Assembly (NCBI GenBank): GCA_040384265.1
Contig: JAZKJM010000003.1
Span: 15,919-79,918 of the forward strand
Source: Pseudomonadota bacterium
GTDB lineage: Bacteria; Pseudomonadota; Alphaproteobacteria; Rickettsiales; UBA3002
Length of the DNA stretch: 64,000 nucleotides
Direction of reading: 5' to 3'
The translations under genes were made by a program, and so were the position numbers. Below the pieces are notes generated by a model. It had not been told where the DNA came from. It made no database searches and worked only from the letters and a program-made list of their open reading frames with translations. Below are positions 3,420 to 53,933 of the stretch, in pieces. The first letter of the stretch is position 1. Every line of letters begins with the position of its first letter.

Positions 3420-3608
3420 CGGCGCCACACCCGCAAGGGTGGGATAAATGGGAGAGCCTTAAGCACTCACGCCCGGCGTCGTCCCTCGGGTGATCATGAC
3501 CTTCCTCACCCGCCCCCTTACTTTATATTCGACATCTATTTTGCAGTTCTTTATACATGTGAGCGGCTGCCAACTCGGTGTAAATGCTTGGCAGTATACG
3601 GGGGCAAA

Positions 3609-6600: not shown

Positions 6601-9491
6601 TCGTCGCCAACGGCACCATGAATATCGCCGCCAAGGGCCTTGCTTACCCGCTGGCGACCGACAAACCCGGCAGCTATGCGCTGGTCGTCTCCAATGCCAA
6701 GGGGCTGGTGCTGAACCGCATCCCCTATACCGTGGTGGGCACAGGAAGCATGATGGGCCAGGTGCGCAAGGACGCCCCCATCACCATTAAGCTCGATAAG
6801 CCGGAATACAATGCGGGCGATAAGATCGAAATGAATATCGTGTCGCCCTATACCGGCGCCGGGCTCATCACGATCGAAACGGATAAGGTGCTCAGCTATA
6901 AATGGTTCAGCACCGACAGCACCAGTTCGGTGCAGACCATCGCCATCCCCAAACGCTTTACCGGCAAAGGCTTCGTCAATGTCCAGTTCCTGCGGGCGAT
7001 TGATTCCAAAGAAATATACACCAAGCCGCTCGCATTCGCGGTAGTGCCATTCATGGTCAGCACCGCCTCGGTCGATAGCGCCATTGCGCTTGAGGTGCCG
7101 GAAAAAGCGAAACCCGGCGATAAACTCACCATCCACTACAGCATGGAAACCCCGGGCAAAATTATCATTTACGCGGTGGATGAAGGTATTTTGCAGTATG
7201 GCCATTACGTAACGCCCAACCCGTTGGAATATTTCATCGGCAAACGGGCACTACAGGTAGCGACGGCGCAAATCCTCGACCTGTTGATGCCGGAATATTC
7301 CATCATGCAGCAGCTTGCGGCACCCGGTGGCGACCGATCGCTGACGGAAGGGAAAAACCTTAACCCCTTCAAGCGCAAAACCCTGCCCCCGGTGGTGTTC
7401 TGGTCGGGGGTGATCGATGCGGATGAAAAACCGCGGCAGGTCACCTATCAGATTCCCGAATATTTCAATGGCGGCCTGAAGGTCATGGCAGTCGCCGTCT
7501 CCGAGCGCACCATTGGCGCAGCAGAAGCCAAGACGGCCGTGAAAGGCGACCTCATTGTTACGCCAAACGTACCCACATTCGCCGCACCGGGGGATGAATT
7601 TGTGGTGGGCGTCAGCGTCGCCAACAATATTGTGGGATCGGGCAAAAATGCGAAGCTGAAGCTGGCCGTTGCACCTTCCGAACATCTGGAGATTCTGGAG
7701 GGCAAGGAAACCACCCTGAGCGTCCCTGAAGGCACCGAAGCAAAAATGACATTACGCGTCAAACCGAAGGATGTGCTGGGTGGTGCAAGCCTGAAATTTA
7801 TTGCGACCGCTGCTGGCAAATCATCGAAATATGAAGCGACACTGAGTGTGCGGCCACCGCTACCGAGCATGACCGCACTAAGCAGCGGCTATGCCGACAA
7901 AGGCGAGAAAACCGTCGCTCAGGAGCGGGACCTTTACAAGGAATTCGGCACCGGCAGTGCGGCTGTTTCAACCCTCCCGGTCAGCCTCATTCCCGGCCTA
8001 TCGGCATATCTCGAGCGCTTCCCCTACGGTTGCACCGAGCAAACGATCAGCAAAGCGATGCCCGCGGTGATTCTCGCCGGACAGAAGGATCTGGGCGGCG
8101 ATTCCAAGCTGGTGGAGCAGGGCGTGGTGAATGCCATGAACCGCTTGCGCGAATTGCAGCAGCCGGGTGGCGGGTTCGGTTATTGGTGGCGCGGCGGCTC
8201 GGAAGATGAGTTCATCAGCACCTATGCCTTGCATTACATGACGCTGGCGAAGGAAAAACATTTGCCCGTGCCGGATGAAACCTTCCGCCAGACGCAGCAA
8301 TATGTAAAAGAACTGGTCAATCGCAGCCCGTCCTCGCTCGATCAGGCACGTGTGCAAGCGTATGGGATTTACCTGCTGACACGCAATGGGGAAGTGACCG
8401 CCAATTACCTGCCCAACCTGCTGCAGTATCTCAATACCAAGCAGAAAGACGCATGGAAGCAGGATCTGACGGCGGTCTATATCGCGGCTTCCTACAAACT
8501 GATGCAGTTGGCGCCGGAAGCGAACAAGCTGATGGATGAATTTGCCCTGGGCGATCCGGTCTCCTGGGCAAAAAACCCGCGTTTCTGGTGGAGCGAAAGC
8601 CCATACTATAACAGCATGAACCGCTACGCGCAGTATCTCACCGTCATCTCCAACCATTTCCCCGAGCGCTTGCCGCAGCTCGATCGCAATATCCTGTTTC
8701 GCATCGCGAACTTTATTGGGGAAGGAAGCTACAACACGCTCTCCTCTTCTTACGCCATCATGGCGTTCAGCAGCTACGGCCAGGCATCCAGCCAGCAAAC
8801 CCAAGCGCAGCTTTCCATCGCCCAAGCCGATGCCGCCGGTAAACTCACCGCGCTTGCGCTCACGGGCACCCAGGTGAAACGGGCCGCGCTGAGTGTGGAC
8901 AAGAACCCGGTGACATTTGCCGGTGGTGGAAAATACGGGCTGTTCTACCAGATCACTACCGACGGCTACGACCGCGCGCGTCCCACCCATCCGATTCAGG
9001 ATGGCCTGGAAATCAATCATCACTATCTCGATGCCGACCAGAAGCCGGTGAAAGAAGTTGCGATCGGCGACACCGTATTCGTCGTCGTCACCATGCGTGC
9101 GCATGATGATAAAACCCTGACCAACATGGCGGTCGTCGACCTGTTGCCCGCCGGGTTCGAAGTGGTGCCCGAAAGCATCGCCCGCCCGGTTGAAACCCGC
9201 CGCCCGTCGCGTGACGAGGACGATGAAGAAGCAGAAGACGACAGCGCCACGATGACCCCCGCAAATGATGATGCATCGTTCGATGGCCAGCCATGGGAGC
9301 CCGAAATGGTCGATGCCCGCGAGGACCGGGTAATCGCGTTCGGTACCGTGCCGTCGGAATTGGTGACCTGGCATTACAAAATAAAAGCGGTCAATGCCGG
9401 GTCGTTCGTTACCCCGCCGCCGTATGTGGAATCGATGTATGAGCGCGCCGTGAAAGCCAGGGGAGTGGTCGGGACGATCACGGTGAAATAA
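3609..9491 (+). CDS. yfhM: Bacterial alpha-2-macroglobulin family protein (YfhM/ECAM-like) with thioester motif
   Basis: 1960-aa ORF. CxEQ thioester motif RFPYG-CTEQ-T at nt 8031-8042. N-terminal signal peptide MRAWGATALAWMLLASPLHAAAP (ATG 3609 preferred over TTG 3588; GGGGG 7 nt upstream). Followed 3 nt later by pbpC, the classic A2M-PBP1C gene pair. Confidence 0.85.
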   Translation: MRAWGATALAWMLLASPLHAAAPTPPPPVTANKVDGPVTGTLPDKITLSIDPHSSNSPNLQDRAPLSVSFCTETSNMEKVLLDGKYVLQPRVYCNTPDRKLHLSGRRQSTGIAMVPEMPGEWRWRSDYTLMFKPKKAWPTGQHYQLTFKQEIFPDQVKLNNGSYSLDTEPLVAQIPQMEFFQDHENVEKKAVTTTIRFNSPVDTESLKQHLEFTLEELTDDSKPNQRKVIAKAENVPFEINMNERATEAVISTPLTSLPDKERFLKVVIKPGLVAKSGGKPLTYVANGPGRFEQRVAVPSRFSYAKIDKIDLRVVKNDRYVPEQMLIITTNVPVTSEELVKHLKIRLLPKDKAAESSAYSAKKDYAWTSANEVTDALFDKAPEVKFTPLPTAEPYATLHSVKLDTEAGRWIYARITGGLNAKGDYVLEHDHNDTLRVPEYEKEVQLLSDGALLSLNGERKVSVFSLGARKLKFDVKRVITSDIGHFISQTRGDFEKPEFENYQFSENNVSESFSEEISLPQSGPRTPQFSAFDFTPYLKKNPDAKGLFKGEPHGKGLFFLTINAIDRDKDGKETVVSNDKRFVLVSDLGLIVKTNRDGSHDAFVQSVQTGKPVSGATIEVLGTNGLAVLKLETDSDGHANIPNLSGFINEKAPVAYVVRNDDDLAFMPYSRSDRSLNYSKFETDGIHTSEEGLKAFLFSERGIYRPGDAVHIGIVVKQGNWAQNLEGLPLRLEITNPRGQVIDKPLLKMNAVGFVEYHFSTKDISPTGVYNVRLYITKDGAQGNALGSTSVRVEEFLPDTMKITSEFNKPVPKGWITPEGLKTTVTLQHLYGAPAVDYRVKAGINLSPGSFAFPDYADYSFFDALKAEKSFDQPIGSNQTDAEGKTTFDLNLSQFGDSTYRLTFSGEGFAADSGRSVKTARSVLVSPLPYVVGVKANNLGYISKGDARKLSLIALDPDLKAIAASGLTTKLLQITYVSTLVKDERGAYAYRSIPKESVVANGTMNIAAKGLAYPLATDKPGSYALVVSNAKGLVLNRIPYTVVGTGSMMGQVRKDAPITIKLDKPEYNAGDKIEMNIVSPYTGAGLITIETDKVLSYKWFSTDSTSSVQTIAIPKRFTGKGFVNVQFLRAIDSKEIYTKPLAFAVVPFMVSTASVDSAIALEVPEKAKPGDKLTIHYSMETPGKIIIYAVDEGILQYGHYVTPNPLEYFIGKRALQVATAQILDLLMPEYSIMQQLAAPGGDRSLTEGKNLNPFKRKTLPPVVFWSGVIDADEKPRQVTYQIPEYFNGGLKVMAVAVSERTIGAAEAKTAVKGDLIVTPNVPTFAAPGDEFVVGVSVANNIVGSGKNAKLKLAVAPSEHLEILEGKETTLSVPEGTEAKMTLRVKPKDVLGGASLKFIATAAGKSSKYEATLSVRPPLPSMTALSSGYADKGEKTVAQERDLYKEFGTGSAAVSTLPVSLIPGLSAYLERFPYGCTEQTISKAMPAVILAGQKDLGGDSKLVEQGVVNAMNRLRELQQPGGGFGYWWRGGSEDEFISTYALHYMTLAKEKHLPVPDETFRQTQQYVKELVNRSPSSLDQARVQAYGIYLLTRNGEVTANYLPNLLQYLNTKQKDAWKQDLTAVYIAASYKLMQLAPEANKLMDEFALGDPVSWAKNPRFWWSESPYYNSMNRYAQYLTVISNHFPERLPQLDRNILFRIANFIGEGSYNTLSSSYAIMAFSSYGQASSQQTQAQLSIAQADAAGKLTALALTGTQVKRAALSVDKNPVTFAGGGKYGLFYQITTDGYDRARPTHPIQDGLEINHHYLDADQKPVKEVAIGDTVFVVVTMRAHDDKTLTNMAVVDLLPAGFEVVPESIARPVETRRPSRDEDDEEAEDDSATMTPANDDASFDGQPWEPEMVDAREDRVIAFGTVPSELVTWHYKIKAVNAGSFVTPPPYVESMYERAVKARGVVGTITVK

Positions 9492-9494
9492 CCG

Positions 9495-11834
9495 TTGCTA
9501 CGGGCCCTACACATCACCCGGCGTCAGTGGATCAAGGCCGCCAAAATAAGTGCGGCGAGCGTCGCCTTTGCCTTCGTTGTCTTTCTCGCGTTTAAGCCGC
9601 CACTGCTCGACACTGTCAGCTTCTCCCATGCGGTGTTCGATCGGCACGGCGCGCTGCTGCGGCTTACCTTATCGCGCGATGAGAAATACCGTCTCTTCGT
9701 GCCGCTTAACGATATCGCGCCGCATTTGCGCGAAGGGGTGCTGCTGCATGAAGACCAGTATTTCTATCGCCATGCGGGCGTGAATCCCGTCGCGCTTGGC
9801 CGTGCATTTGTCCAATCCTATCTCTTACGCAACCGCAAGATCGGCGCCTCCACCATCACCATGCAGCTGGCGCGCATCCAATACGGCATCAACAGCCACC
9901 GCATCACCGGAAAGCTCTGGCAGATCGCGCGCGCCGTGCAGCTTGACCTGCATTACAGCAAGGATGCATTGCTCGAAGCCTACCTGAACCTCGTGCCGTA
10001 TGGCTATAATGTCGAAGGCGTAGGCGCGGCGAGCTTTATCTATTTGCACAAGAAGCCGATCGACCTCACCTTGCCCGAATCGCTGACCCTCGCCGTCATT
10101 CCGCAGAACCCCAATAAGCGCAGGCCGGAGCACGCCAATCCCGCCAAACCGGCACTTATCCAAGCACGCAACCGGTTGTTTGAGCGGTGGCTCGAAACCC
10201 ACCCGGAAAGTGCCGACCAGAAACCTTTCTTCACCTTGCCCCTTGCAACCTATGGCGTGGAGAATCTCCCGTTTCGGGCACCGCATCTGGTCGTCAACCT
10301 TCTGGCCAAATATAAAACCATCGGGCAAATCCATAGCACGGTCGATCTCGATATGCAGACGATGCTCGAAAATATTCTGCGCCGCTACGTTACCGACCGG
10401 CGCGATATCGGCATCAACAATGCCAGCGCCTTGCTGGTCGATACACAGACCATGCAGGTCATCGCCAGCATCGGTTCCGCCGATTTCTTCAACAAACCGA
10501 TCAGCGGACAAGTCGATGGCACGAACGCCAAACGCTCGCCGGGCTCGGCGCTGAAACCCTTTGTCTACGCGCTGGCGTTCGATCAGGGGCTCATCCACCC
10601 GATGAGCGTGCTGGGCGATGCGCCGACCAATTTCGGCAGCTACAGCCCCGATAATTTCGACCGCGATTTCCGCGGGCCCATCCCGGCGCACGATGCGCTG
10701 CGCTTAAGCCGCAATGTGCCCGCCATCACGCTCGCTTCGCAACTGAAAGCACCCGATCTCTATCAGTTCTTTACCCAGGCCGGCATCGCCAAGCTGCGCA
10801 CAAAGGACGATTATGGCCTGTCGCTGGTGCTCGGCGCCGCCGAAGTAACCATGCGCGAACTTGCCGGATTGTACGCCATGCTCGCCAATGATGGCATGCT
10901 GCAACCCCTCGTGTTTCGCATGGACGACACGCAGACGCCAAAACGCGAACCGCTCCTCACGGGCGAGGCAAGTTTCATGACGCTCGATGCCCTGCGCGAT
11001 ACGCCCCGGCCCTATAGCGTCAGTGAAGCGCACCGCGTCTATTGGAAAACCGGCACGTCCAACGGCTACCGCGATGCCTGGACTGCGGGCGTGTTCGGCC
11101 ATTATGTGCTGGTGGTGTGGGTAGGGAATTTTAACGGTAAAAATAACCCGGCGCTGGTCGGGGTGCGCACCGCCGCGCCGCTGTTCTTTGCAATGGTCGA
11201 TGCCATCGATGAAAAAGAGCCCCACCCCGAACGCATTGCGTCCAAGCCCAACCACTTGCGGCTGCGTAAACTGGATGTGTGCGCTACCACCGGCGATCTA
11301 TCCTCCGAGGGCTGCCCGGCTTTGGCCAGCACCTGGTTCATTCCGGGCGTGTCGCCCATTCATCGGCACGATGTCTACCGTAAAATCCTGGTGAATATCG
11401 CGACCGGCAAACGCGCCTGCCATTTCGAACCCGGCCTCACCGAATACCGCACCTTTGAGGTATGGCCGAGCGATCTGCGGCAAACCCTGCAAAAAGCCGG
11501 TATTCGCAAACCCTCCCTGCCACCGCGCGAGCAAAACTGCGATAACACAACCGCGCCATCAAGCGGGCGGGCGCCGGTCATCACGTCACCCCAGGCCAGC
11601 GTTGAATACCATGCCCGCCTGACGGATAGCGCATCGGAGGCGATTCCCCTGAACGCTACCGCAGACGGCGATGCCACCAGCTTGCATTGGTTCATTGATA
11701 ACGATTATTTCGGAAAATCTGTTCCCGGCGAATCCCTTTCCTGGCATCCCAAACCCGGCCGCTACCAAGTGCGCGTTGTCGATGAACATGGGCGCTCCGC
11801 GGCGACAACCATGCTGGTTTCCCTTGCGCAATAG
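9495..11834 (+). CDS. pbpC: Penicillin-binding protein 1C (bifunctional transglycosylase/transpeptidase)
   Basis: GT51 motifs EDQYFYRHAGVNP and GASTITMQLAR. Transpeptidase SxxK (GSALKPF) and KTG (YWKTGTS). N-terminal TM anchor. Located directly downstream of the A2M gene. Confidence 0.85.
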   Translation: MLRALHITRRQWIKAAKISAASVAFAFVVFLAFKPPLLDTVSFSHAVFDRHGALLRLTLSRDEKYRLFVPLNDIAPHLREGVLLHEDQYFYRHAGVNPVALGRAFVQSYLLRNRKIGASTITMQLARIQYGINSHRITGKLWQIARAVQLDLHYSKDALLEAYLNLVPYGYNVEGVGAASFIYLHKKPIDLTLPESLTLAVIPQNPNKRRPEHANPAKPALIQARNRLFERWLETHPESADQKPFFTLPLATYGVENLPFRAPHLVVNLLAKYKTIGQIHSTVDLDMQTMLENILRRYVTDRRDIGINNASALLVDTQTMQVIASIGSADFFNKPISGQVDGTNAKRSPGSALKPFVYALAFDQGLIHPMSVLGDAPTNFGSYSPDNFDRDFRGPIPAHDALRLSRNVPAITLASQLKAPDLYQFFTQAGIAKLRTKDDYGLSLVLGAAEVTMRELAGLYAMLANDGMLQPLVFRMDDTQTPKREPLLTGEASFMTLDALRDTPRPYSVSEAHRVYWKTGTSNGYRDAWTAGVFGHYVLVVWVGNFNGKNNPALVGVRTAAPLFFAMVDAIDEKEPHPERIASKPNHLRLRKLDVCATTGDLSSEGCPALASTWFIPGVSPIHRHDVYRKILVNIATGKRACHFEPGLTEYRTFEVWPSDLRQTLQKAGIRKPSLPPREQNCDNTTAPSSGRAPVITSPQASVEYHARLTDSASEAIPLNATADGDATSLHWFIDNDYFGKSVPGESLSWHPKPGRYQVRVVDEHGRSAATTMLVSLAQ

Positions 11835-12035: not shown

Positions 12036-12111
12036 TGGTGGGGGGAGAGGGATTTGAACCCCCGACCAAGGCGTTATGAGCGCCCTGCTCTAACCGCTGA
12101 GCTATCCCCCC
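12036..12111 (-). tRNA. tRNA with CAU anticodon (elongator tRNA-Met type; tRNA-Ile2 not excluded)
   Basis: The reverse complement reads GGGGGGATAGCTCAGCGGTTAGAGCAGGGCGCTCATAACGCCTTGGTCGGGGGTTCAAATCCCTCTCCCCCCACCA. It has a 7-bp acceptor stem, D arm GCTC/GAGC, anticodon stem GGGCG/CGCCT with loop CTCATAA, a T arm with TTCAAAT loop, and encoded CCA. G1:C72 and the lack of a GGG/CCC anticodon stem argue against initiator tRNA. Confidence 0.85.
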
Positions 12112-12313
12112 CGGCAGTGGTTTCCATGCGCCCCTGGCCCACCGAAACCGCTGAAAAACATATGCCCTTCACTTCGTAGCAAAAAAACCTCACTGCTCAA
12201 CTAATAAAGCGCCTGCCCGGCATTTGCGCATTCATTAATCCCCTCTTAATCATTTTGCGTTATGCTGTGGCATGGCCTTTCGTTTCTCCTTCCTGAAGCT
12301 CCGCAGCCGCGCC

Positions 12314-13162
12314 ATGAAGCGCGGCTTCAGCCTTGTCGAGCTTTCGGTCGTGGTTTCCATCATGAGCGTCGTCTCGGTGATGGGGCTCGAAGGGGCCGCT
12401 AACTTCATCAACCGCACCTCGGGTGCCGTCACTAAGGACCGCCTCGCCGTCGTCGACACCGCCATCGCCCGGTTTTTCCGCATTTATGGCCGCCTGCCCT
12501 GCCCGGCCGCGCGCACTGCCGCACCGCTCGGCTCCACCAGCTACGGGCTGGAGGATTGCTCCATCGGCACCTTCGCCACCGGCACCAACTACGCCAGCCT
12601 CATCGGTGGCGGGCTGATGAGCGGCGCGGTGCCCTTTCGCACCCTCAACCTGCCCATGAGCACCTCGCTCGATGGTTTCAGTAGCAAAATCAACTATGTC
12701 GTGACCAAAAACATGACCCTCGCCGGCACCACTACCGGCCGTTTCGGATTTTATGATGGCACCAACGCCACCACCATCGCCGCCAGCGGCGTCGGCGGCA
12801 TCCAGATTCGCACCGGCGTGCTGGCCCAGCCCTGCAACACCGGCAGCTGCAACACCGTCGCCGACCCCACTACCACTCCGCCCGATGGCGCCGCCTACAT
12901 CGTCTTTAGCTCCGGCTCGGATAAGCGCGGGGCCTATTCGGCAAACGGGGTGGCCACCACCGCCTGCATCCCCACCCCCACCGCCGCGCATAACTCGCGG
13001 GTGGATTCGCAAAACTGCGTGCAGGGCCTGCCCGGCACCAACACCGTCTCGGTCAGCAACATTCCCAACAATGTGTTCTACGATAACCGCTACAATGCCG
13101 GGCTCAACCTCACGAACTATTTCGACGATTACGTGATCTGGCGCAAACGGAGCCAGCTATGA
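12314..13162 (+). CDS. Prepilin-type (GspG/type IV pilin-like) protein, paralogue 1 of 5
   Basis: Class III signal MKRG|FSLVELSVVVSIMSVV (short basic leader, G-1, F+1, E+5, hydrophobic helix). Shares blocks YGRLPCPA, GAVPFRTLNLP, YIVFSSGSDKRGAY and C-terminal YFDDYVIW with the four downstream genes. ATG 12314 is preferred to the listed 12272 because prepilin leaders are short. Confidence 0.7.
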   Translation: MKRGFSLVELSVVVSIMSVVSVMGLEGAANFINRTSGAVTKDRLAVVDTAIARFFRIYGRLPCPAARTAAPLGSTSYGLEDCSIGTFATGTNYASLIGGGLMSGAVPFRTLNLPMSTSLDGFSSKINYVVTKNMTLAGTTTGRFGFYDGTNATTIAASGVGGIQIRTGVLAQPCNTGSCNTVADPTTTPPDGAAYIVFSSGSDKRGAYSANGVATTACIPTPTAAHNSRVDSQNCVQGLPGTNTVSVSNIPNNVFYDNRYNAGLNLTNYFDDYVIWRKRSQL

Positions 13163-14445
13163 TGCGCGCCCGCCATGGTTTCAGCCTGCTCGAACTGTCG
13201 GTGGTGCTGGCCATCATCTCGCTGGTGGCTGCGGCGGGCATTTCGCTTGCCAGCGGCGCGCTCAAAGCCGCCGACCGCGTGACCACGCAGGAGCGCCTCA
13301 ACACCATCAAGCTCGCCCTCGATAGCTACACGAAGCTCTACGGCTACCTGCCCTGCCCGGCCGACCGCGCCAAGGTCACGACCGATACCGACTTTGGCGT
13401 CGAAAAGCGCACTGGCCCGCCCGGCACCACCTGCACCGTCAGCAGCCCGGGCATTGTCTCGGTGACCGGGGCCTATTACGGCGGCGTCCCCACCCGCACC
13501 CTCGGCCTGCCCGATAACTATGCGGGCGATGCATGGGGCAACAAACTGACCTACGCCGTGTCCAGCAACCAGGTCACCAATAGCGCCAGCGCCGCGGGCT
13601 CTGACGGTGCCCTTAACGTTCGCTATGGCGAGCGCACCGGCACGTTCTACACGGTGACTACGCAGCGCGTTCAGGTGAACTTTACCGGCGTCACCAACCC
13701 TGCCGGTAACACGGCTCGTTTTGCTGTCGCCAGCACCAGCGGCATTGCGGTAGGCACCATTGTCACCCCGGTCAGCACCAACTTCGGCAAAGGCTCCTTT
13801 GCCGTCACCGCATTCAGCAACAATGCATGGATCGAAGTGAATCTCGGCGTTGCCGTTCCGGCCACTGAAGCAGGCACGCTCACCTGGCAAACCCCCGGCC
13901 CGGCCGCGTCGTATGTCGTGGTCAGCCACGGGCCGGATGGGCGGGGCGCATTCCCCACCGCGGGCACGGCCGTGCCTGCCGTGAAACTCTGCATTGCCGT
14001 TGCCGCCAACAGCTCGCCGCTGCCATGCAGCGTCGCCGCCGATGCCACCAAATGTAACGACATCGAGAACTGCAACGAGGTCAACGGCGGCAGCGACGTC
14101 ACCTTCTACGATACCTCCTACAATGACGGCCCCAACGCAGCGCAGTATTTCGACGATTATGTCGTCTGGGGCAGCAATGCGAGCGCACGCGTCGCCGTCA
14201 ACAACACCGCCTATACCAGCTGCACCAGCGGCTGCGAAAGCTGGTGCGCGCCCTGCACCGGCAGTTATAATTACCCCGGCGCCTTCGCCGTACCCGCTGG
14301 CCTTACTACCAACCTGACCAACCCCGTATTGTGCAACAAAGTACTCTATAGCAGCTCCACCAACTGCTTTGCCTCCTGCTTCTGGAGCGGCACCGCACTG
14401 ACTGCCGCCGCAGGTGGTGTCGGTGCATACAGCAGGTGCCCATGA
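13159..14445 (+). CDS. Prepilin-type (GspG-like) protein, paralogue 2 of 5, with Cys-rich C-terminal extension
   Basis: MMRARHG|FSLLELSVVLAIISLV. Blocks YGYLPCPA, GGVPTRTLGLP, DAWGNKLTYAVS (GspG-like DPWGN block), YVVVSHGPDGRGAF and YFDDYVVWG. Start overlaps the upstream stop by 4 nt (ATGA). GGAG 8 nt upstream. Confidence 0.7.
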   Translation: MMRARHGFSLLELSVVLAIISLVAAAGISLASGALKAADRVTTQERLNTIKLALDSYTKLYGYLPCPADRAKVTTDTDFGVEKRTGPPGTTCTVSSPGIVSVTGAYYGGVPTRTLGLPDNYAGDAWGNKLTYAVSSNQVTNSASAAGSDGALNVRYGERTGTFYTVTTQRVQVNFTGVTNPAGNTARFAVASTSGIAVGTIVTPVSTNFGKGSFAVTAFSNNAWIEVNLGVAVPATEAGTLTWQTPGPAASYVVVSHGPDGRGAFPTAGTAVPAVKLCIAVAANSSPLPCSVAADATKCNDIENCNEVNGGSDVTFYDTSYNDGPNAAQYFDDYVVWGSNASARVAVNNTAYTSCTSGCESWCAPCTGSYNYPGAFAVPAGLTTNLTNPVLCNKVLYSSSTNCFASCFWSGTALTAAAGGVGAYSRCP

Positions 14446-15200
14446 TGCATGCACCCCGCACCCGCAACCCGCGCGAACAGGGCTTCACCCTCGTCGTCAT
14501 TGCTGCGCTATTCATCGCCTTCGCGGTGATTGGCGCGGCGGCGGTCGAGCGCAACACCACCGCCCAGCAGATCACCCGCCGCACCGCCACTGCCGAGCAG
14601 CTCACCCGCCTGTCCAACGCCATCATTGAATATTCGGTGTTCAACCGCAGCGGCACCACCAATATCTACCCCTGCCCGGCGCGCTACGACCTTGACCCCA
14701 GCAACGCAAGCTTCGGCATCAGTTACACCGGTTGCTACAACACCGCCCCAACGGCAAGCGGCGGTGTAGTGCTCACCGCAGGATCAACCGATATCCTTCG
14801 CGGCATGGTGCCGGTGCAGACCCTCTCCCAATATGGTGGCATCAACGTGAACGACGCGTTCGACCCGTGGAACAACCGCATCATGTATATCGTCAACCGC
14901 CAGATGACATCGGCCCTCGGCACCCCGGTCAAGGCCAATAACCCCACCGTCACCGAGGTCACCACCAGCCAGACCATCGCCGCGCCGGACTTCATCCTCG
15001 TCAGCTATGGCCGCGACGGGGTGGGTGCCTATAAACGCGTCGATACCACGGTCGCCATTGGCTGCGCCGCCGCCAGCACCGAGCGCCGCCTCGAAAACTG
15101 CGACAACGATATCGCTTTCAACCAGGGACCGACCTACACCGCCACCAACGCCACTACGACCACCTATTTCGACGACATCCTCAGCTATTACCGCCAGTAA
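14442..15200 (+). CDS. Prepilin-type protein, paralogue 3 of 5, lacking Glu+5 (minor-pseudopilin-like)
   Basis: Longer leader MMHAPRTRNPREQG|FTLVVIAALFIAF with Val instead of Glu at +5. Retains blocks IYPCPA, GMVPVQTL, DPWNNRIMYIVN, FILVSYGRDGVGAY and YFDDILSYY. ATGATG overlaps the upstream TGA; the exact start (14436/14442/14445) is uncertain. Confidence 0.6.
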   Translation: MMHAPRTRNPREQGFTLVVIAALFIAFAVIGAAAVERNTTAQQITRRTATAEQLTRLSNAIIEYSVFNRSGTTNIYPCPARYDLDPSNASFGISYTGCYNTAPTASGGVVLTAGSTDILRGMVPVQTLSQYGGINVNDAFDPWNNRIMYIVNRQMTSALGTPVKANNPTVTEVTTSQTIAAPDFILVSYGRDGVGAYKRVDTTVAIGCAAASTERRLENCDNDIAFNQGPTYTATNATTTTYFDDILSYYRQ

Positions 15201-15262
15201 GCCCACAAATGTCACAGCCGCCCAAACTTTGCAGCGCACCGCCGCCACAGACGCAAAACCTA

Positions 15263-15291
15263 TTGATACAGGGCGGTACTCATGCTAGATT
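15263..15291 (+). promoter_or_regulatory. Possible sigma-70-type promoter for the paralogue 4-5 sub-operon
   Basis: TTGATA-N17-TAGATT in the 139-nt gap between paralogues 3 and 4, about 48 nt upstream of ATG 15340. Sequence match only. Confidence 0.3.
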
Positions 15292-15339
15292 CGTTAACGC
15301 CTAAATAGCTCAATTCACTTACATTTTTGGACTGTTTCC

Positions 15340-16032
15340 ATGAACCGCGGCTTTACCATGCTCGAACTGACCATCGTCATCGCCATTAGTGGGCTGATGC
15401 TGGGCTTCGTGCTGCAAGCCACCAAAAGCAACCAAAGCTCGGAATGCTACGCCACCACCAAAGTCCAGCTTGCGACAGTGCAGACCGCCATCACCAGTTT
15501 CGTTCGCAAGAACGACCGCTACCCCATGCCCGCCCGCCGCGATATTGGCGTGAGCGATGCCAATTACGGGCGCGAAGCCGTCGCCGCCAACCTGACCGTT
15601 TCGGGCACCACCACCTGGGGCGCGTTGCCGTTTCAGGCGCTTGGCCTGCCCACTTCCTTTGCGGGTGACTGCTGGGGCAATAAATTCACCTATGTCGTGA
15701 CCACCGCCCTCACCACCAACGCCGCCAGCGGTGGTTATCTGGATGCTGCGGTGGTTGGTACCATCACCGTAAAAAGCGGTGCCAGCACCACCTCAAGCAC
15801 CGCTGCCGCCTACGCCGTCATCAGCCAGGGCGAGGACATGCTCAACGCCGCCGCCCTCAACGCCACCAGCGTCAGCTGGTGCGGCACCGGCACCACCCTT
15901 GCCACCTACAACTGCTACCCCGCCAACTCGCCCGCCACCGTCGCCAACGCCCTGTTCAACAACGGCAAGAATGCTGGCGCGGCCTATTTCGATGACCTTG
16001 TCATCGCCGCCGACCGCGCGAGGGTCATCTAG
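15340..16032 (+). CDS. Prepilin-type (GspG-like) protein, paralogue 4 of 5
   Basis: MNRG|FTMLELTIVIAISGLML. Blocks RYPMPA, GALPFQALGLPTSFAGDCWGNKFTYVVT, YAVISQGED and YFDDLVIA. Closely related to the N-terminal about 230 aa of the next gene. Confidence 0.7.
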   Translation: MNRGFTMLELTIVIAISGLMLGFVLQATKSNQSSECYATTKVQLATVQTAITSFVRKNDRYPMPARRDIGVSDANYGREAVAANLTVSGTTTWGALPFQALGLPTSFAGDCWGNKFTYVVTTALTTNAASGGYLDAAVVGTITVKSGASTTSSTAAAYAVISQGEDMLNAAALNATSVSWCGTGTTLATYNCYPANSPATVANALFNNGKNAGAAYFDDLVIAADRARVI

Positions 16033-16118
16033 CGTGATAAACTGCGTGCAGCGCGGCGGTGATTATGCTATGCTTTAACCATGCCACTAAATGGCACCAC
16101 GCCTCTCTCAGGACATGC

Positions 16119-18350
16119 ATGAAGCGTCGCGGATTTTCACTAGTCGAAATGTCGATTGCGCTTGTGGGAGCGGGCCTATTAGCGGGTGTGGTGCTGACGA
16201 TGACCTCGGCCAGCACCCGTTCGGGTTGCTACGAAACCACCCAGGCTCAGCTCACCACCATCAAGGATTCCCTGCAGAAATACGCCCAGCAGAACGACCG
16301 CTACCCGCTACCCGCCAACCGCCGCCTCGGTGTCAGCGATCCGAACTTTGGCCGCGAAGCGACCGTCCCCACCGACATCGACACCGATGCCACCACCGGC
16401 ATCTCCTATGGTGCGCTGCCGTTCCAGGCGCTCGGCCTGCCGACCTCCTTTGCCGCCGATTGCTGGGACAATAAATTCACCTACGCCGTGACCACCGCCT
16501 ACACCACCAGCGCCGGCTTCCTCGACCATGCCAAAACCGGCGCCATCGCCATCAACAGCACCGCCGCCGCTGCGCTGCTGCCCGAAGCGGCCTATGCTGT
16601 CATCAGCCACGGGCAGGACGGTATCGGCGCGGTGAAACGCAACTATGCCGGTGCCAGTAAGGAATGGTGCCTGACCGCCGCCACCGCCGCGCTCGCCCCA
16701 CTGCAGACCAAAAACTGCGGGCTGCTGCCCACCCTGATCGCCAGCCAGTTCAACGATGGCAAAAACAGCGGCGACCAGTATTACGACGACCTCGTCGCCT
16801 ATAACGGTCGCCCGCAAGTCCTGCCCTGCACCCTGCCCGCGCGTGTCGACTGGACCGTCAGCGGCAACGCATGCGCGGCCAAGCCCGACAACACCAGCCA
16901 CCAGATGACGAACTTCGACACCATCGCCAACGTGCTCAATGATGTCACCCTCGCCGCAGGCTATAGCGGCAAGGTCTCCGTACTGTGCAAAAATGGCGTC
17001 GTCGACCCCGTGCTTGACGGCAGCGAGACATGCATACCGCTACCATGCACGGTTAGCACCACCCTGACATGGCTAACTGGTGGCAACGAATGTAGCGCCA
17101 CGGCCACCGCCAGCAGCACTGCCCCCGTTGATAATGGCGCCACCGTCGCACTCACCACCACCGGTGGCACCACCAGCAACAGCGGCACCGCAACCGCCAC
17201 CTGCGATCACGGCACGTTTAAACTGGATCCAAGCGTTGTTCAAACCTGCAACCTGCCCGCCTGCAAACCCTTCTTCGCACCCTCCATGGAAACCAAGAGC
17301 GAAGGCAGCGGATTTGCCTTGGTCAGCACCGACGGAATCCGAGTGTGGCATGGGTCTGGAACCAATAACTATAGCATGCTTCCCCTCAAAACGACGCACA
17401 TATCCTCAGGCGGCATCCCGACCACCAATGCCCTTGTGCAGCTTGTGTTTGGCCCATGGGCCGGGGGCTATAACGATACTGAGGGGCGCCTCACCCCCAC
17501 CAGCAGTGGCAAATGGGAACTAACCGCCCCCTTGCCGGGCAACTGGCGCAATGACGGCGGCGTCGGTGTCTATGATACCCTCTATACGCTTACCGTCTAC
17601 GACATGGAAACCCTGACAAGCGCCCAGATGGACTCCGCCCATTACGATGACCATGTGTCGGTCGAGGTCAATGGTGTGCAGGTTTTCAATAGCGAAGGCG
17701 GCTCTATGCTCGAGGTCCCTGCATCGTTGGGAGGGGCGTATATGAAGCCCTCCCCTGGCGGTTTGGTCCAAACCTGCTCGGATGCCACCTATGACCAATC
17801 GCCTCCCGTGGAATCGGGCGATAGCAGCCCCACGTATCCCGCCCCCACCATCTCATGCCTGACCGGCGGAGAAACAGGTAGTGCACGTTCCAGTTACAAC
17901 GCTGTGAATATTAAGCCCTACCTGCATGCTGGCGCAAACATCATCAAGGTGCGCACCATCATTGGCGGGCTTGGCCATGGTGTTGTGTATATGAGCGCCA
18001 GTTCCCGCGCCCCGGCCACCCCTGCGACATCCTGCGCAACGGGTAACTGGGCGCTCGGCCCCTACAGCGCCTGCTCCGCCTCGTGCGGTGGCGGCACCAT
18101 AACGGCGAGCTATTACTGCACCGGCGGCACGGGCGAATGCACCAGCCCACAACCCGCCACTCTAACGCAGGCCTGCAACACGCAAGCATGCGGCCAGTGC
18201 AACACCTGCAGCAATGGCGCAGTTCCCTTAGTGCGGGTGGGCGGCAACAAAGAGAACAAAACCTACACCACCTATTGCGCGGATGGCAGCCCCTACACCT
18301 CCTGCGCCCCGCCACCCGTAGAATACCAAAACAGCAGCGGCGACCGCTAG
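16119..18350 (+). CDS. Large prepilin-type protein (paralogue 5): pilin module fused to Cys-rich repeats, a jelly-roll-like domain and a thrombospondin type-1-like repeat
   Basis: MKRRG|FSLVEMSIALVGAGLLAG at ATG 16119. Blocks RYPLPA, GALPFQALGLPTSFAADCWDNKFTYAVT, YAVISHGQDGIGAV and YYDDLVAY. Then two tandem units of about 70 aa (nt 16821-17264). Then a segment with HYDDHVSVEVNGVQVF...NIIKVRTIIGG. Then WALGPYSACSASCGGGTITASYYCTGGTGECTSPQPATLTQACNTQAC (nt 18033-18191), with six Cys spaced x3/x10/x6/x11/x4 as in TSP1 repeats. Confidence 0.7.
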   Translation: MKRRGFSLVEMSIALVGAGLLAGVVLTMTSASTRSGCYETTQAQLTTIKDSLQKYAQQNDRYPLPANRRLGVSDPNFGREATVPTDIDTDATTGISYGALPFQALGLPTSFAADCWDNKFTYAVTTAYTTSAGFLDHAKTGAIAINSTAAAALLPEAAYAVISHGQDGIGAVKRNYAGASKEWCLTAATAALAPLQTKNCGLLPTLIASQFNDGKNSGDQYYDDLVAYNGRPQVLPCTLPARVDWTVSGNACAAKPDNTSHQMTNFDTIANVLNDVTLAAGYSGKVSVLCKNGVVDPVLDGSETCIPLPCTVSTTLTWLTGGNECSATATASSTAPVDNGATVALTTTGGTTSNSGTATATCDHGTFKLDPSVVQTCNLPACKPFFAPSMETKSEGSGFALVSTDGIRVWHGSGTNNYSMLPLKTTHISSGGIPTTNALVQLVFGPWAGGYNDTEGRLTPTSSGKWELTAPLPGNWRNDGGVGVYDTLYTLTVYDMETLTSAQMDSAHYDDHVSVEVNGVQVFNSEGGSMLEVPASLGGAYMKPSPGGLVQTCSDATYDQSPPVESGDSSPTYPAPTISCLTGGETGSARSSYNAVNIKPYLHAGANIIKVRTIIGGLGHGVVYMSASSRAPATPATSCATGNWALGPYSACSASCGGGTITASYYCTGGTGECTSPQPATLTQACNTQACGQCNTCSNGAVPLVRVGGNKENKTYTTYCADGSPYTSCAPPPVEYQNSSGDR

Positions 18351-18496: not shown

Positions 18497-20422
18497 ATGG
18501 CAAAAGTAATCGGCATCGATTTAGGCACCACCAACTCCTGCGTCGCCATCATGGAAGGCGGCAGCGCCAAAGTGCTTGAAAACGCGGAAGGCGCCCGCAC
18601 CACCCCGTCGATCGTGGCCTTCACCGGCGACGGCGAGCGCCTCGTCGGCCAGAGCGCCAAGCGCCAGGCCGTCACCAACCCGGAGAACACCATCTTCGCC
18701 GTCAAGCGCCTGATCGGCCGCACGTTCGACGATCCGACGACGCAAAAAGACGCCAAGCTCGTGCCGTATAAAATCTCGCGTTCCGAGAACGGTGACGCCT
18801 GGGTGGAATCGCGCGGCGAAAAATACAGCCCGTCGCAAATCTCCGCCTTTACGCTGGGCAAAATGAAAGAAACCGCCGAGAATTATCTCGGTGAAAAAGT
18901 GACGGATGCAGTTATCACCGTTCCCGCCTACTTCAACGACGCCCAGCGTCAGGCCACCAAGGATGCCGGCAAAATCGCCGGTCTCAACGTGCTGCGCATT
19001 ATCAACGAACCGACCGCTGCGGCGTTGGCCTATGGCTTCGAGAAAAAAGACGGCCAGACCATCGCGGTCTACGATTTGGGCGGCGGCACGTTCGACGTGT
19101 CCGTGCTCGAAATCGGGGATGGCGTGTTCGAAGTGAAATCCACCAACGGCGACACGTTCCTCGGCGGTGAAGATTTCGATATGCGCATCGTCGATTTCCT
19201 CGCCGATGAGTTCAAGCGCGAGCAAGGCATCGACCTGCGCAAGGACACGATGGCGCTGCAACGCCTGAAAAGCGCAGCCGAAAAAGCGAAAATCGAGCTG
19301 TCGAGCACCCAGCAGACCGACATCAACGAGCCGTTCATCACCGCCGATGCCTCGGGCCCGAAACATTTGACCATCAAACTCACCCGCGCCAAGCTCGAAT
19401 CGCTGGTCGATGACCTGATCCAACGCACCATGGAGCCTTGCAAAAAGGCCCTCAAGGATGCGGGCGTGGATGCCAGCGCCATCGACGAAGTGGTGCTGGT
19501 CGGCGGCATGAGCCGCATGCCCAAAGTCATCGAAATGGTGAAAAACTTCTTCGGCAAAGACCCGCATCGCGGCGTGAACCCAGATGAAGTCGTCGCCATC
19601 GGCGCGGCCATTCAGGGCGGCGTGCTCAAAGGCGAAGTCAAAGATGTGCTGCTGCTGGACGTAACCCCGCTCAGCCTCGGCATCGAAACCCTCGGCGGCG
19701 TGTTCACCCGCCTGATCGACCGCAACACCACCATCCCGACCAAGAAGTCGCAAACCTTCTCGACGGCGGATGACAACCAGACCGCCGTTACCATCCGCGT
19801 CTTCCAGGGTGAGCGCGAAATGGCGGCGGATAACAAAGTGCTCGGCCAGTTCGACCTCGTCGGCCTGCCTGCCGCCCCGCGTGGTATGCCGCAGATCGAA
19901 GTCACCTTCGACATCGATGCCAACGGTATCGTCAATGTTTCGGCGAAGGATAAAGCCACCGGCAAGGAGCAACAGATCCGCATCCAGGCCTCCGGCGGCC
20001 TGAGCGACGCCGACATCGACAAAATGGTAAAAGAAGCGGAAGCCAACGCCTCCGCCGATAAGGAAAAACGCGCCCTCATCGAAGCCAGGAACAAGGCCGA
20101 AGCCCTTGCCCATGAAGCCGAGAAGAACGTGCGTGAGCATGGCAGCCTGGTTGGCGATTCGGAGAAAAACCAGATCGAAGCCGACATCAAAGCCGTGCGC
20201 GATGTGCTGGAATCCTCCGACAAAGCCGACATCGAGGCCAAGGCGCAAGCCCTCAGCCAGTCGATGATGAAGCTCGGCGAAGCCATCTACAAAGCCCAGT
20301 CCTCGGCCGCACCGACCGGCGACACCAGCCACACCGAAGCCCCGACAGGCAATGCCGGCCCGGATGGCGACGTGGTCGATGCCCAGTTCGAAGACGTGTC
20401 CGACGACAAGAAATCGAACTAG
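18497..20422 (+). CDS. dnaK: Molecular chaperone DnaK (Hsp70)
   Basis: [58 protein letters not shown]. Full-length 641 aa. Confidence 0.98.
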
Positions 20423-20426
20423 TGAC

Positions 20427-20460
20427 ATTCCCTCCCCTGTAACGGGGGAGGGAATTTACT
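20427..20460 (+). terminator. Stem-loop after dnaK (possible attenuating or intrinsic terminator)
   Basis: ATTCCCTCCCC (20427-20437), loop TGTAACG, GGGGAGGGAAT (20445-20455), followed by TTTACT. The 11-bp stem is perfect but the U-tract is weak. Confidence 0.45.
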
Positions 20461-20500
20461 CCCTTGACCATCCACCCCTAAATCCCTAAGAACCCGCCCT

Positions 20501-21661
20501 ATGGCCGATGATTTTTACACCACCCTGGGCGTCGCCAAAGGGGCAAGCGAGGATGAGCTTAAGAAAGCCTACCGCAAGCTCGCCATGCAATTCCATCCGG
20601 ATCGCAACGCTGGCAACGCCGAGGCCGAGAAGAAATTCAAAGCTGTCAGCGAAGCCTATGACGTGCTCAAAGACCCGCAAAAACGCGCCGCCTACGACCG
20701 TTTCGGCCACGATGCGTTTGCCGGTGGCATGGGCGGCGGCGGTCAGGGCGGCGGGTTCTCCGGCTTCTCCGGCGGCGGCAGTTTCTCCGATATTTTCGAG
20801 GATCTGTTCAGCGAATTCACCGGCAGCCGCGGCGGCCGTGGCAATGCCAACGCCCAGGCCCAAGCCAGCGCCACCCGTGGTTCCGACCTGCGCTACAACC
20901 TCGATATCGAGCTGGAAGATGCCTTCAAAGGCAAGCAGCAGAACATCAAAATCACCACCAGCGCCAGCTGCGACACCTGCAACGGCAACGGCTCGGAAAA
21001 AGGCACCAGCGCCGAAACCTGCGCCACCTGTTCCGGCCGCGGCACCGTGCGCGCCCAGCAAGGCTTCTTCACGGTCGAGCGCGGCTGCTCCACCTGCCAG
21101 GGCACCGGCAAAGTCATCAAAAATCCGTGCAAAACCTGCGCCGGTTCCGGCCGCGTGCGGAAAGAAAAAACCCTCAGCGTCACCATCCCGGCCGGGGTCG
21201 AGGAAGGCACCCGCATCCGCCTTGCGGGCGAGGGCGAAGCCGGTTTCCGCGGCGGCCCGGCGGGCGATCTCTATATTTTCCTGTCGATCAAGCCGCACCG
21301 CATCTTCAAGCGCGACGGCGCCAATATCTATTGCGGCGTGCCGCTCAAGCTCTCCACCGCCACCCTGGGCGGTCATATCGAAGTGCCGACCATCGATGGC
21401 GGGCGCGTCAAAGTCACCATTCCTGAAGGCACCCAGACCGGCCACCAGTTCCGCCTCAAAGGCAAGGGCATGAGCGTGCTGCGCAGCCAGGCCAAAGGCG
21501 ACATGTATATCGAGGTCGCGGTCGAAACGCCGGTCAACCTCAACAAAAAACAAAAAGAATTGCTGCGCGAATTCGATACCACCAGCGGCAAGGAAACCAG
21601 CCCGGAATCCGAAGGCTTCTTCTCACGCGTCAAAGAATTCTGGGAAGATTTGAAGGAATAG
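20501..21661 (+). CDS. dnaJ: Molecular chaperone DnaJ (Hsp40)
   Basis: J domain with HPD ([13 protein letters not shown]), a Gly-rich linker, four CxxCxGxG zinc-finger repeats ([32 protein letters not shown]) and a C-terminal substrate-binding domain. Confidence 0.97.
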
Positions 21662-23989: not shown

Positions 23990-24049
23990 AGCCGTGCGCA
24001 GCGCGACTGCGCGAAGCCGGAGCGAACGAGGGCGGGGGCTGGACGCCCC
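23990..24049 (-). repeat. GC-rich REP-like intergenic repeat, copy A
   Basis: The reverse complement GGGGCGTCCAGCCCCCGCCCTCGTTCGCTCCGGCTTCGCGCAGTCGCGCTGCGCACGGCT aligns with 43315-43415 (copy B). It contains two internal hairpins: GGGGC/GCCCC and GCGCAG/CTGCGC. Confidence 0.6.
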
Positions 24050-24076
24050 TTGCGGCAACGCCGCCAACCAATACTA

Positions 24077-24121
24077 AAGCTATGGGATGACTAGCGGATA
24101 GCGCTAGTCATCCCATAGCTT
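24077..24121. terminator. Perfect 20-bp-stem hairpin overlapping the stop of the 120-aa ORF (bidirectional terminator or protein-binding palindrome)
   Basis: AAGCTATGGGATGACTAGCG (24077-24096), loop GATAG, CGCTAGTCATCCCATAGCTT (24102-24121). No U-tract. The right arm encodes the last 5 codons and stop of the 24104-24466 ORF. Confidence 0.5.
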
Positions 24122-24466
24122 CGGTTGCGGCACCGCATAGGTTGGCGGGGGGGCGGTTTTGGGGCGGGGGACGTCGATCATGTTGTGGGTGACGGCCATT
24201 TCGGAACGCATCTCGGCGGTGGGTTCGCCTTTGCCGGCGGCCAGCACCGTGCCATATTCGGCGGGCATGAAATCCTCGGTCTTGCGCATTTTGTCGCGCA
24301 GCTGCTGCAGCGAGCGCAGGCTTAATTCGAGATAGGTAAATATCTGATCATTATAGACATTTTTGCCTTGAAGCAGGATCACCACTTTTTCATCGAGCAA
24401 GGCCTCATCCAACTCGACCGGAGTTGAATTTTTGCTGAATGCGCTTGTTTTCCAAGTGGTGTTCAT
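24104..24466 (-). CDS. Hypothetical protein (120 aa), Pro-rich C-terminus
   Basis: Intact ORF in a lower-GC islet, co-oriented with the ORFs on either side. No motif recognised. Confidence 0.5.
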   Translation of the reverse strand: MNTTWKTSAFSKNSTPVELDEALLDEKVVILLQGKNVYNDQIFTYLELSLRSLQQLRDKMRKTEDFMPAEYGTVLAAGKGEPTAEMRSEMAVTHNMIDVPRPKTAPPPTYAVPQPKLWDD

Positions 24467-24555
24467 GGCCTGTCACTATCCTGCATAGGCCGCAAACTAT
24501 AAAGTTTGAAATGTCGAAAGGGAAGATTTTTCGCGCGATTTAGCGCAAACGTGGC

Positions 24556-24792
24556 TTATGCGACGCTTTGGCCATTACCCGACTCACGGGTTTTGGCACG
24601 ATTCTCGAGGCCGGAAGCAATGTCAGTCACTGCTTGGGTGTATTTAGGAACCTCATTCATGCTGCCGCGCGTTTGGATAACGAGCTGAGCCATTTTTGCA
24701 TCTTCGTGATTGTCCGTAAGAATTGCGTTTACCAGCATAGCCGTGATCTTATCACCCGACGCCGACGAAACCTGTTGCAGTTGGACAGTCAT
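24556..24792 (-). CDS. Hypothetical small protein (78 aa)
   Basis: Strong Shine-Dalgarno: on the minus strand, TAGGAGCACAGGT-ATG. First gene of a three-ORF minus-strand string. About 46% G+C by eye. Confidence 0.5.
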   Translation of the reverse strand: MTVQLQQVSSASGDKITAMLVNAILTDNHEDAKMAQLVIQTRGSMNEVPKYTQAVTDIASGLENRAKTRESGNGQSVA

Positions 24793-24864
24793 ACCTGTGC
24801 TCCTAAAAACCGATGCGTTTCCCGCTTATTCTTAACTTTACCGAAACTTCACTAAAAATTCGTT

Positions 24865-24915
24865 AACAAATTAACTATTTTTATGACAGTTTGATGACAA
24901 TTAAGTTAATTTGTT
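24865..24915. promoter_or_regulatory. Operator-like inverted repeat in the AT-rich region upstream of the 78-aa ORF
   Basis: AACAAATTAACT (24865-24876) and AGTTAATTTGTT (24904-24915) are perfect reverse complements. They flank TATGACAGTT/GATGACAATT direct half-repeats. The minus strand reads TTGTCA-N17-TAGTTA between the arms. Confidence 0.35.
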
Positions 24916-25141
24916 CACACATCTTCCTTACCCTCACTTTACGCAAATGGCCCCAAGGGCGCAATGGAAACCGCATAAAACGGCGCAATCTTCACGGAAC
25001 TGTCACAATTGCGGTGGGCTGCCCCGCCACCACCCCTTAAGCGAAATTACGCCGGGCAACGGCGGCGCGCGCTGAACCGTTGGCATTGCCAGCGCCCGCC
25101 GCCCGTGCTATGAAGCAATACCTTACCCAACCGGAGATACT

Positions 25142-53908: not shown

Positions 53909-53933
53909 TCAGGAAACCTTGCTTGCCGTTGGG

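Follow-up and report, generated by a model that had tools for sequence, protein, structure and literature searches.

A dnaK-linked cluster of five paralogous pilin-like genes in an uncultured alphaproteobacterium: a candidate tip set with cargo pilins of a type IV filament

Five consecutive plus-strand genes, here called P1 to P5, lie between a tRNA-Met gene and dnaK in a 64,000-nucleotide stretch of DNA (the window; positions 15,919 to 79,918 of contig JAZKJM010000003.1, assembly GCA_040384265.1) from a Pseudomonadota bacterium that GTDB places in the Rickettsiales, UBA3002. Here, we analyse the five proteins and their relatives, and we suggest that the locus specifies a tip (priming) set of pilin-like subunits, along with cargo pilins, for a type IV filament with its motor genes at another site, a reading to which we give slightly better than an even chance. 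It is most likely an uncharacterised version of a known theme and not a new class of system. Minor and modular pilins are the main route by which type IV filaments acquire new functions, yet descriptions of such sets from non-model organisms are few. The locus is of interest in three respects. It defines a large pilin head domain outside the Pfam and NCBIfam family models; this head is a universal carrier of very large, eukaryote-like adhesion modules (RCC1 and thrombospondin type 1 repeat-like, TSP1-like); and it comes with a dedicated three-gene set in which the member lacking glutamate at position +5 (Glu5) would mark the tip or priming complex. The locus also offers candidate cell-contact genes for an uncultured lineage of obscure lifestyle. 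The features of the cluster are these (aa, amino acids; nt, nucleotides; ORF, open reading frame; HMM, hidden Markov model):

12036-12111, minus strand: tRNA-Met (CAT) gene, found by ARAGORN and Rfam; the conserved upstream boundary of the pilin-like cluster.
12272-13162, plus strand: P1, 296 aa; opens the unit P1-P2-P3, which is translationally coupled; its stop codon overlaps the start of P2.
13159-14445, plus strand: P2, 428 aa; N_methyl match of 28.3 bits.
14436-15200, plus strand: P3, 254 aa (252 aa from a likelier start, the ATG at 14442); no N_methyl match; candidate cap subunit, GspK/PilX-like.
15201-15339, plus strand: P3-P4 intergenic gap of 139 nt, separating the P1-P3 unit from the P4/P5 genes.
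15340-16032, plus strand: P4, 230 aa; a head-only member of the P4/P5 type, from its AlphaFold2 model and 47% identity to the P5 head.
16059-18350, plus strand: P5, a 763-aa ORF with a probable prepilin-type start at 16119; modular pilin, from the family HMM and the AlphaFold2 model of its head.
18048-18191, plus strand: TSP1-like motif in the P5 cargo, from sub-threshold PF19030 and PF00090 matches.
18497-20422: dnaK, the downstream neighbour; dnaK-dnaJ together span 18497-21661.

The first-pass annotation of this DNA had placed five plus-strand genes with prepilin signals between tRNA-Met and dnaK, and our analysis confirms that layout, with the genes at 12272-18350. Its gene positions were right, but it overlooked the ~500-aa extension of P5, the lack of Glu5 in P3 and a trio of TadE, TadE/TadF and TadG genes elsewhere in the window.

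The N-termini of the five proteins (a slash marks the predicted cleavage site) read MKRG/FSLVEL at the end of a long leader in P1, MMRARHG/FSLLEL in P2, REQG/FTLVV, again after further leader residues, in P3, MNRG/FTMLEL in P4 and MKRRG/FSLVEM in P5. Both PF07963 (N_methyl) and TIGR02532 match P1, P2 and P4 above their curated cut-offs (23.9 and 26.7 bits, respectively, for P1). P5 falls just below these cut-offs (16.2 against 21.2 bits and 15.5 against 16.3 bits), and P3 matches neither model, though its leader and helix are present. Homology among the five is not confined to this region. All-against-all BLASTP showed that it extends past the N-terminal helix across the entire head domain (E-values from 1e-9 to 8e-54), as for P4-P5 (8e-54, 47% identity over 238 aa), P1-P2 (1e-28), P1-P4 (6e-21), P2-P4 (1.5e-18) and P3-P5 (1.5e-12). 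The family HMM matches P3 at E 2.9e-64 and P5 at E 1.7e-100, the latter over residues 21-351 of the ORF. When all five are aligned, 26 columns are invariant, among them P-x-P-A, G..P...L, D....Y.V, S.G.D, N-C and Y.DD; these agree with the blocks from which mutual paralogy had first been proposed, and the proposal stands. The number of cysteines is even in all five, as would be expected for exported, disulphide-bonded proteins; P2 has a large insertion in the head and a Cys-rich tail (14 Cys), and P5 has 28 Cys.

The shared head is a pilin-fold domain that is not covered by any Pfam or NCBIfam family model. The AlphaFold2 model of P4 (predicted local distance difference test score, pLDDT, 91.3; predicted template modelling score, pTM, 0.83) combines a helix at residues 7-58 with a beta domain in the lollipop shape of pilins. 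The head of P5 is modelled as the same lollipop with pLDDT >90, and pLDDT drops below 50 beyond residue 245. The top Foldseek matches of the P4 model in the PDB are type IV pilins and pseudopilins, all weak (best E 0.058), with a template modelling (TM) score of 0.40-0.44 to CofA (9iuf). In structural terms, P4 is thus predicted to be a pilin lollipop without a close solved relative; the family profile aligns with PDB sequences over the N-terminal ~66 residues only. An exhaustive profile search returned 3,676 representatives at 50% identity and E<=1e-30. The notion of a rare family, which came from 32 matches in a word-indexed search with P4, was rejected on this count. Members carry generic names in their sources, such as 'prepilin-type...', 'PulG' (Joint Genome Institute, JGI) or 'RCC1 family'.

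The five had been described as GspG-like, which holds only in so far as weak, sub-threshold matches exist. The best score is 31.2 bits against a cut-off of 88.85 for TIGR01710 (GspG) and 13.2 bits against 21 for PF08334 (T2SSG), which 11 of 31 family members match, at E 0.0085-1 only; hhalign to E. coli GspG covers the first 66 residues and then stops (probability 96.5%). Beyond this N-terminal likeness to GspG/PulG, three C-terminal blocks follow in the same order by eye (D.WGN..Y; S.G.DG; DD), whereas the proteins measure 230-763 aa here against 145 aa in E. coli GspG. We consider the resemblance of the head to the GspG blocks suggestive only. Matches to the other pseudopilin models were N-terminal as well (GspH, at most 29.9 bits against 80; GspI, 17.7 against 44.35), the GspJ and GspK models are not listed among the matches of the five, and the TadE/Tad signatures PF07811, PF16964 and PF13400 match none of them. 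The five hit no curated, functionally characterised family with known machinery, and a candidate machine comes instead from a distant branch of the family in Tad/Cpa loci, described below.

These likenesses bear on the possibility that the five, with the subunit roles proposed here unchanged, are divergent GspG-type pseudopilins or minor pilins of the type IVa pilus (T4a), served by a type II secretion system (T2SS) or T4a system and a bifunctional peptidase of the PilD/GspO type encoded elsewhere in the genome. Their leader and +1 to +5 motif fit PF07963 and TIGR02532, sub-threshold matches to T2SSG and TIGR01710 recur, the blocks DPWGN..Y, S.G.DG and DDI keep the order of E. coli GspG by eye, and JGI names some members PulG. 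Micavibrio ARL-13, in which a type II system is annotated without GspC, G, H and K beside three operons with eight prepilin-type proteins (PMC3189940), is compatible with either kind of machine. Against these stand the widely missed GspG cut-offs, an alignment to GspG that ends at residue 66, and gene context: among the 25 loci examined, none has the family in a gsp operon or a GspD, GspE, GspF or GspO homologue beside it, and Tad/Cpa is the only type IV filament machine seen next to it. On balance, we regard a T2SS or T4a machine for the five as less likely than not.

That the cluster is a standing arrangement came from the comparison of loci, drawn from GTDB genomes, metagenomes and assemblies, by the family HMM and reciprocal BLAST (loci of relatives are numbered with the prefix L). 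The order P1-P2-P3-(P4/P5)n is kept in nine complete loci, namely the window, L001, L004, L005, L007, L013, L017, L018 and L025; L017 is a 4-kb Logan contig of the window's own organism and carries four identical gene calls, P1-P4. Partial copies are found in L026-L028, and a metagenome scan with P3 gave at least four loci. Typically, a P1-like gene (~285 aa) is followed by a P2-like (~420 aa) and a P3-like gene (~250-320 aa) and then by one to three genes of the P4/P5 type; the gap at the P3-P4 position is 139-245 nt in all eight loci compared. P1 orthologues are 41% (L013) or 54-57% (L001, L004, L005, L007) identical to P1, with a gene of P1 length at the P1 position in L018 and L025, and P2 orthologues are 46-58% identical in five loci. 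Taken together, P1, P2 and P3 are 41-63% identical to their respective orthologues (54-63% if L013 is set aside), and identity across types does not exceed 42%. The duplications are therefore old, and P1, P2 and P3 form separate orthogroups of long standing.

The surroundings are conserved too. Both boundaries, tRNA-Met and dnaK-dnaJ-dapB, are kept in L001, L004, L007 and L013, and DnaK of the genomes with conserved boundaries is 87-89% identical to that of the window. The tRNA-Met directly before the cluster lies on the same strand in those four loci and on the opposite strand in L005, and in L018 the cluster is directly upstream of dnaK-dnaJ-dapB. The conserved position beside dnaK argues that the locus is native to these genomes. 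All carriers are uncultured metagenome-assembled genomes (MAGs) of ~2.2-2.4 Mb whose labels read Alphaproteobacteria, Rickettsiales or 'Azospirillum', the name Micavibrio appears on some distant relatives, and there is no cultured relative among the 120 best DnaK matches. The GTDB representatives do not include the window species; their best match is 58% identical.

These data make it very improbable that the cluster is a recently acquired island, or a decaying pilus remnant at the tRNA-Met, without current function. A tRNA gene does adjoin it and the genes upstream of that tRNA vary between genomes, but all five ORFs are intact and the tRNA-Met/dnaK-dnaJ-dapB position persists where DnaK is only 87-89% identical. 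Their composition is native, as had been noted earlier, with GC 0.60-0.64 against ~0.60 for the window and GC at third codon positions (GC3) of 0.74-0.84, as in the housekeeping genes of the window. Moreover, orthologues that are 41-63% identical and retain the conserved motifs point to long-term purifying selection.

The role of P1-P2-P3 is suggested by the pattern of Glu5. In P3 orthologues the motif is G/F[TS][LM]VV, with valine at +5 instead of glutamate, in seven of the seven genomes checked, while Glu5 is present in every P1, P2 and P4/P5-type sequence where the motif was found. Three of the four orthogroups thus keep Gly-1, Phe+1 and Glu+5 without exception, and in just one of them the absence of Glu5 is an equally strict rule. 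The pseudopilins of E. coli K-12 show the same split, with Glu5 in GspG, H, I and J but not in GspK (RG/VALLI). In models of the T2SS and the T4a pilus, the Glu5-less subunit caps the filament. By analogy, P3 is a candidate cap subunit of the GspK/PilX kind. The locus presents a fixed order of unlike pilin-like genes, one of them without Glu5, as a minor-pilin tip set does. The valine pattern, the coupling of P1-P2-P3 by overlapping stop and start codons at P1/P2 and at P2/P3, and the conserved gap of 139-245 nt fit a tip or priming complex better than redundant major subunits. The first-pass annotation had seen here an expanded single family and not an ordinary minor-pilin set. One paralogous prepilin-type family it is, but with old and separate P1, P2 and P3 orthogroups, a fixed order and Val5 in P3, it behaves like a minor-pilin tip set.

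Among known systems, GspH-I-J-K of the T2SS and FimU-PilV-W-X of the T4a pilus are alike in having unlike pilin-fold subunits side by side in fixed order, encoded by small, translationally coupled genes; in GspHIJK exactly one subunit lacks Glu5, GspK in E. coli K-12, and here it is P3. Unlike in those systems, the present subunits are recognisable mutual paralogues over the whole globular domain, the genes lie apart from the machine and a PilY1-like partner was not seen; their matches to the GspH and GspI models, confined to the N-terminus, stay at or below 30 bits against cut-offs of 44-80.

The genes that follow are of a different design. In the loci read, P4/P5-type proteins consist of a ~230-aa head and 0 to ~2,270 aa of cargo, and P5 itself joins a ~240-aa head to a Cys-rich C-terminal cargo of ~500 aa. 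The TSP1-like motif in this cargo scores just below threshold (PF19030, E 1.3e-4, 22.6 bits against a cut-off of 23.8; PF00090, E 4e-3), and phmmer finds weak matches of the cargo to thrombospondin-1 and ADAMTS13 chains among PDB sequences (E 0.007-0.016). In L001, L003, L004, L005 and L018 the cargo carries RCC1/WD40_RLD repeats scoring far above cut-off, and in relatives such propellers stand at orthologous positions. Large cargo is common: 106 of the 138 P4/P5-type proteins among the best 150 representatives are at least 500 aa long, and one member among the representatives has 2,854 aa. Lone extra P4/P5-type genes are scattered in the genomes of relatives (L002, L006, L008, L010, L012).

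Some single members and neighbours in these loci deserve mention. The family member at 9923-17425 of L004 has 2,500 aa and at least 19 RCC1 repeats; at 7845-9674 of L013, RCC1 repeats are carried by the Glu5-less P3 orthologue itself; and the family member at 4385-7765 of L019 has faint Hint-domain matches. Near scattered family members there are also lone prepilin-type genes of ~260-300 aa (L002, 3019-3807, minus strand; L010, 1173-1952, minus; L009, 5615-6457, plus; L018, 1-392, minus), which match the family HMM over the N-terminal region only and indicate that orphan class III signal proteins are numerous in these genomes.

P5 and its relatives thus combine a pilin module with an extra domain that is not specific to pili. 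Modular pilins, S. sanguinis PilB and PilC as well as CofB, TcpB, GspK and ComZ among them, are built in this way (PMC8179133). They resemble the present proteins in their class III signal, in a bulky module probably displayed at the tip and in very diverse architectures. What differs here is that the carrier is one specific 230-aa head without a Pfam model, reused thousands of times, and that RCC1-propeller and TSP1-like cargo do not appear among the modular-pilin architectures in the passages of PMC8179133 consulted.

Which machine could serve the five? We searched with E. coli K-12 GspC-O (NC_000913.3) and the Tad proteins of L015 as queries, using phmmer and tblastn; the CpaF of L015 was recovered by blastp and phmmer but escaped tblastn with E. 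coli GspE, and the checks rely on phmmer and Tad queries. The window contains no ATPase, platform protein, secretin or prepilin peptidase by phmmer or tblastn with the Gsp and Tad queries, and the Pfam scan of 20 other ORFs in it gave no assembly machinery, only housekeeping genes besides the Tad-type trio listed below; the earlier statement that the window lacks these four components is upheld. GspC-O homologues were not found by phmmer and tblastn in the window, L001-L014, L017-L019 or L025-L028.

The link to a machine is made by a distant branch of the family, in which three tandem genes match the family HMM at E 1e-32 to 1e-49 and the identity of their products to the window proteins is ~26-30%. 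This trio lies directly beside a Tad/Cpa locus in four of six loci (L015, L020, L023, L024), co-directional with and 130 nt upstream of genes for a pil_N protein and a TadD-like TPR protein. In L020 and L023 it converges on TadC-TadB-CpaF-CpaE-CpaD-CpaC-RcpC-CpaA(A24); L024 was read as far as RcpC, and L015 has the same start and is cut at CpaF. The window contributes a second line of evidence in its own Tad minor-pilin genes:

53934-54641, minus strand: TadE.
53210-53908, minus strand: TadE/TadF.
51837-53213, minus strand: TadG-like VWA protein.
51837-54641, minus strand: the TadE, TadE/TadF and TadG (VWA) trio as a whole, from PF07811, PF16964, PF13400 and VWA matches.

The N-termini of this trio have G/xxxxEF motifs. 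The trio resembles a canonical Tad 'Tip-like' cluster of minor pilins and may be a second tip set; it is evidence that the genome uses a Tad-type filament. Together, the adjacency of the distant branch to Tad/Cpa loci and the Tad minor pilins of the window suggest a Tad-type machine, and we propose a Tad/Cpa (type IVc) system for the five as a tentative assignment that we hold somewhat short of an even chance.

Several observations weigh against reading the locus as a filament tip set served by such a machine. Neither the window nor 18 close loci contain a machine or peptidase gene, so that assembly into a fibre is something we infer. The Tad adjacency is confined to the branch of ~26-30% identity, and no Tad machine gene is linked in the window lineage; L015, L023 and L024 share upstream synteny and are therefore not independent events, and the trio lacks this adjacency in L022 and in L021, a MAG with the label Micavibrio. 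All three genes of the distant trio have Glu5. The N-termini of the five carry the N_methyl motif of T4a/T2SS type (G/F[ST]LxE) and do not fit the TadE/Flp models. An obvious small, abundant major pilin is not encoded at the locus, and the Foldseek matches to solved pilins are as weak as given above.

Some of these points also favour the view that the five are not filament subunits at all, and that the prepilin-like N-terminus is an anchor or export signal of membrane-tethered periplasmic or surface adhesins or enzymes. Large families of prepilin-tagged proteins exist in Planctomycetes and Verrucomicrobia, to which the five could be likened. The absence of a machine near the locus in the window lineage and of a small major pilin within it would agree with such anchors, as would the very large size of the family and its huge C-terminal domains, which seem awkward for passage through a secretin. 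Anchors alone, however, would hardly explain the strict conservation of Gly-1, Phe+1 and Glu+5 with loss of Glu5 confined to one orthogroup. Three small paralogues in fixed order, translationally coupled, and a distant branch co-oriented with tad accessory genes also speak for filament subunits, and we consider the anchor explanation improbable.

We therefore return to the tip set with cargo pilins, and argue that it could work as follows. All five proteins would be inserted in the inner membrane by their class III signals, and a prepilin peptidase of the A24 family would cleave after the conserved glycine. P1, P2 and P3 could then come together by their N-terminal helices in a small complex from which the filament begins to grow. 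The top position in this complex would fall to P3, as it does to GspK in type II secretion, since P3 alone lacks Glu5 and would need no partner above it. Evolution would have grafted unlike C-terminal modules onto the one 230-aa head common to the P4/P5-type subunits, and these may be shown at or near the tip as interchangeable modules for adhesion or contact. The machine would most likely be Tad/Cpa, or otherwise a T4a/T2SS-like system elsewhere in the genome.

A precedent for exchangeable tips comes from a 2025 study, which shows that the Tad-like pili of Myxococcus draw on several three-gene 'Tip' clusters of minor pilins, scattered in position and variable in their distal domains (PMC12075869). 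These Tad 'Tip' complexes (KilL/M/N; TadE/TadF/TadG) resemble the present set in forming three-gene clusters, several per genome, away from the machine, and in having a large member with a variable, exposed C-terminal domain and many predicted disulphides (PMC12075869). They differ in that the present five have an N_methyl (T4a/T2SS-type) N-terminus and that the window has a separate, genuine TadE/F/G trio. It is conceivable, though to us unlikely, that T4a/GspG-like pilins of the N_methyl type are here processed by the short A24 peptidase of a Tad system and assembled by its machine, and that an alternative, P3-capped tip displays giant cargo (RCC1, TSP1-like) for contact with prey or host. 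Taken jointly with this, and equally speculative, would be its setting in Micavibrio-like Alphaproteobacteria of small genome size, with pilins used across classes and an 'adaptable tip' that evolved independently of the Kil tips of Myxococcus. If Tad pili do serve the family, the idea of an 'adaptable tip' from Myxococcus would extend to another phylum, and Tad machines would be seen to accept pilins of the T4a type.

Turning to transcription, the overlapping stop and start codons, the 139-nt gap and the sequence TTGATA-N17-TAGATT reported inside it, at 15263-15291, are all real. Sigma-70-like matches of this kind are, however, not above chance (3 observed against 2.1 +/- 1.7 in shuffled sequence). 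The P3-P4 gap has no conserved sequence across the eight loci and no Rfam match. A strong hairpin lies just past the P3 stop codon in L007 (GGGGACACAAAAAATCATTGTGTCCCC), with a related sequence in L013, and suggests that P1-P3 form a transcription unit of their own; an equivalent hairpin was not seen in the 139-nt gap of the window.

Elsewhere in the window, GC dips locally to 0.51 at 24001-25000 and to 0.48 at 63001-64000 from a mean of ~0.60. The product of a plus-strand gene at 84-3419 has 1,111 aa and an MBG_2 (YGX-type) domain and is possibly another surface adhesin. It shares with the five pilin-like proteins an unusual pattern of GC by codon position, in which GC at second positions (GC2) is as high as 0.59 against ~0.4-0.5 in most other genes. 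Directly upstream of tRNA-Met, at 3588-11834 on the plus strand, are genes for a giant alpha-2-macroglobulin-like protein (1,967 aa) and then for a PBP1C-type transglycosylase/transpeptidase. L001 keeps this pair in place, yet at 22-28% identity, compared with 87% for DnaK.

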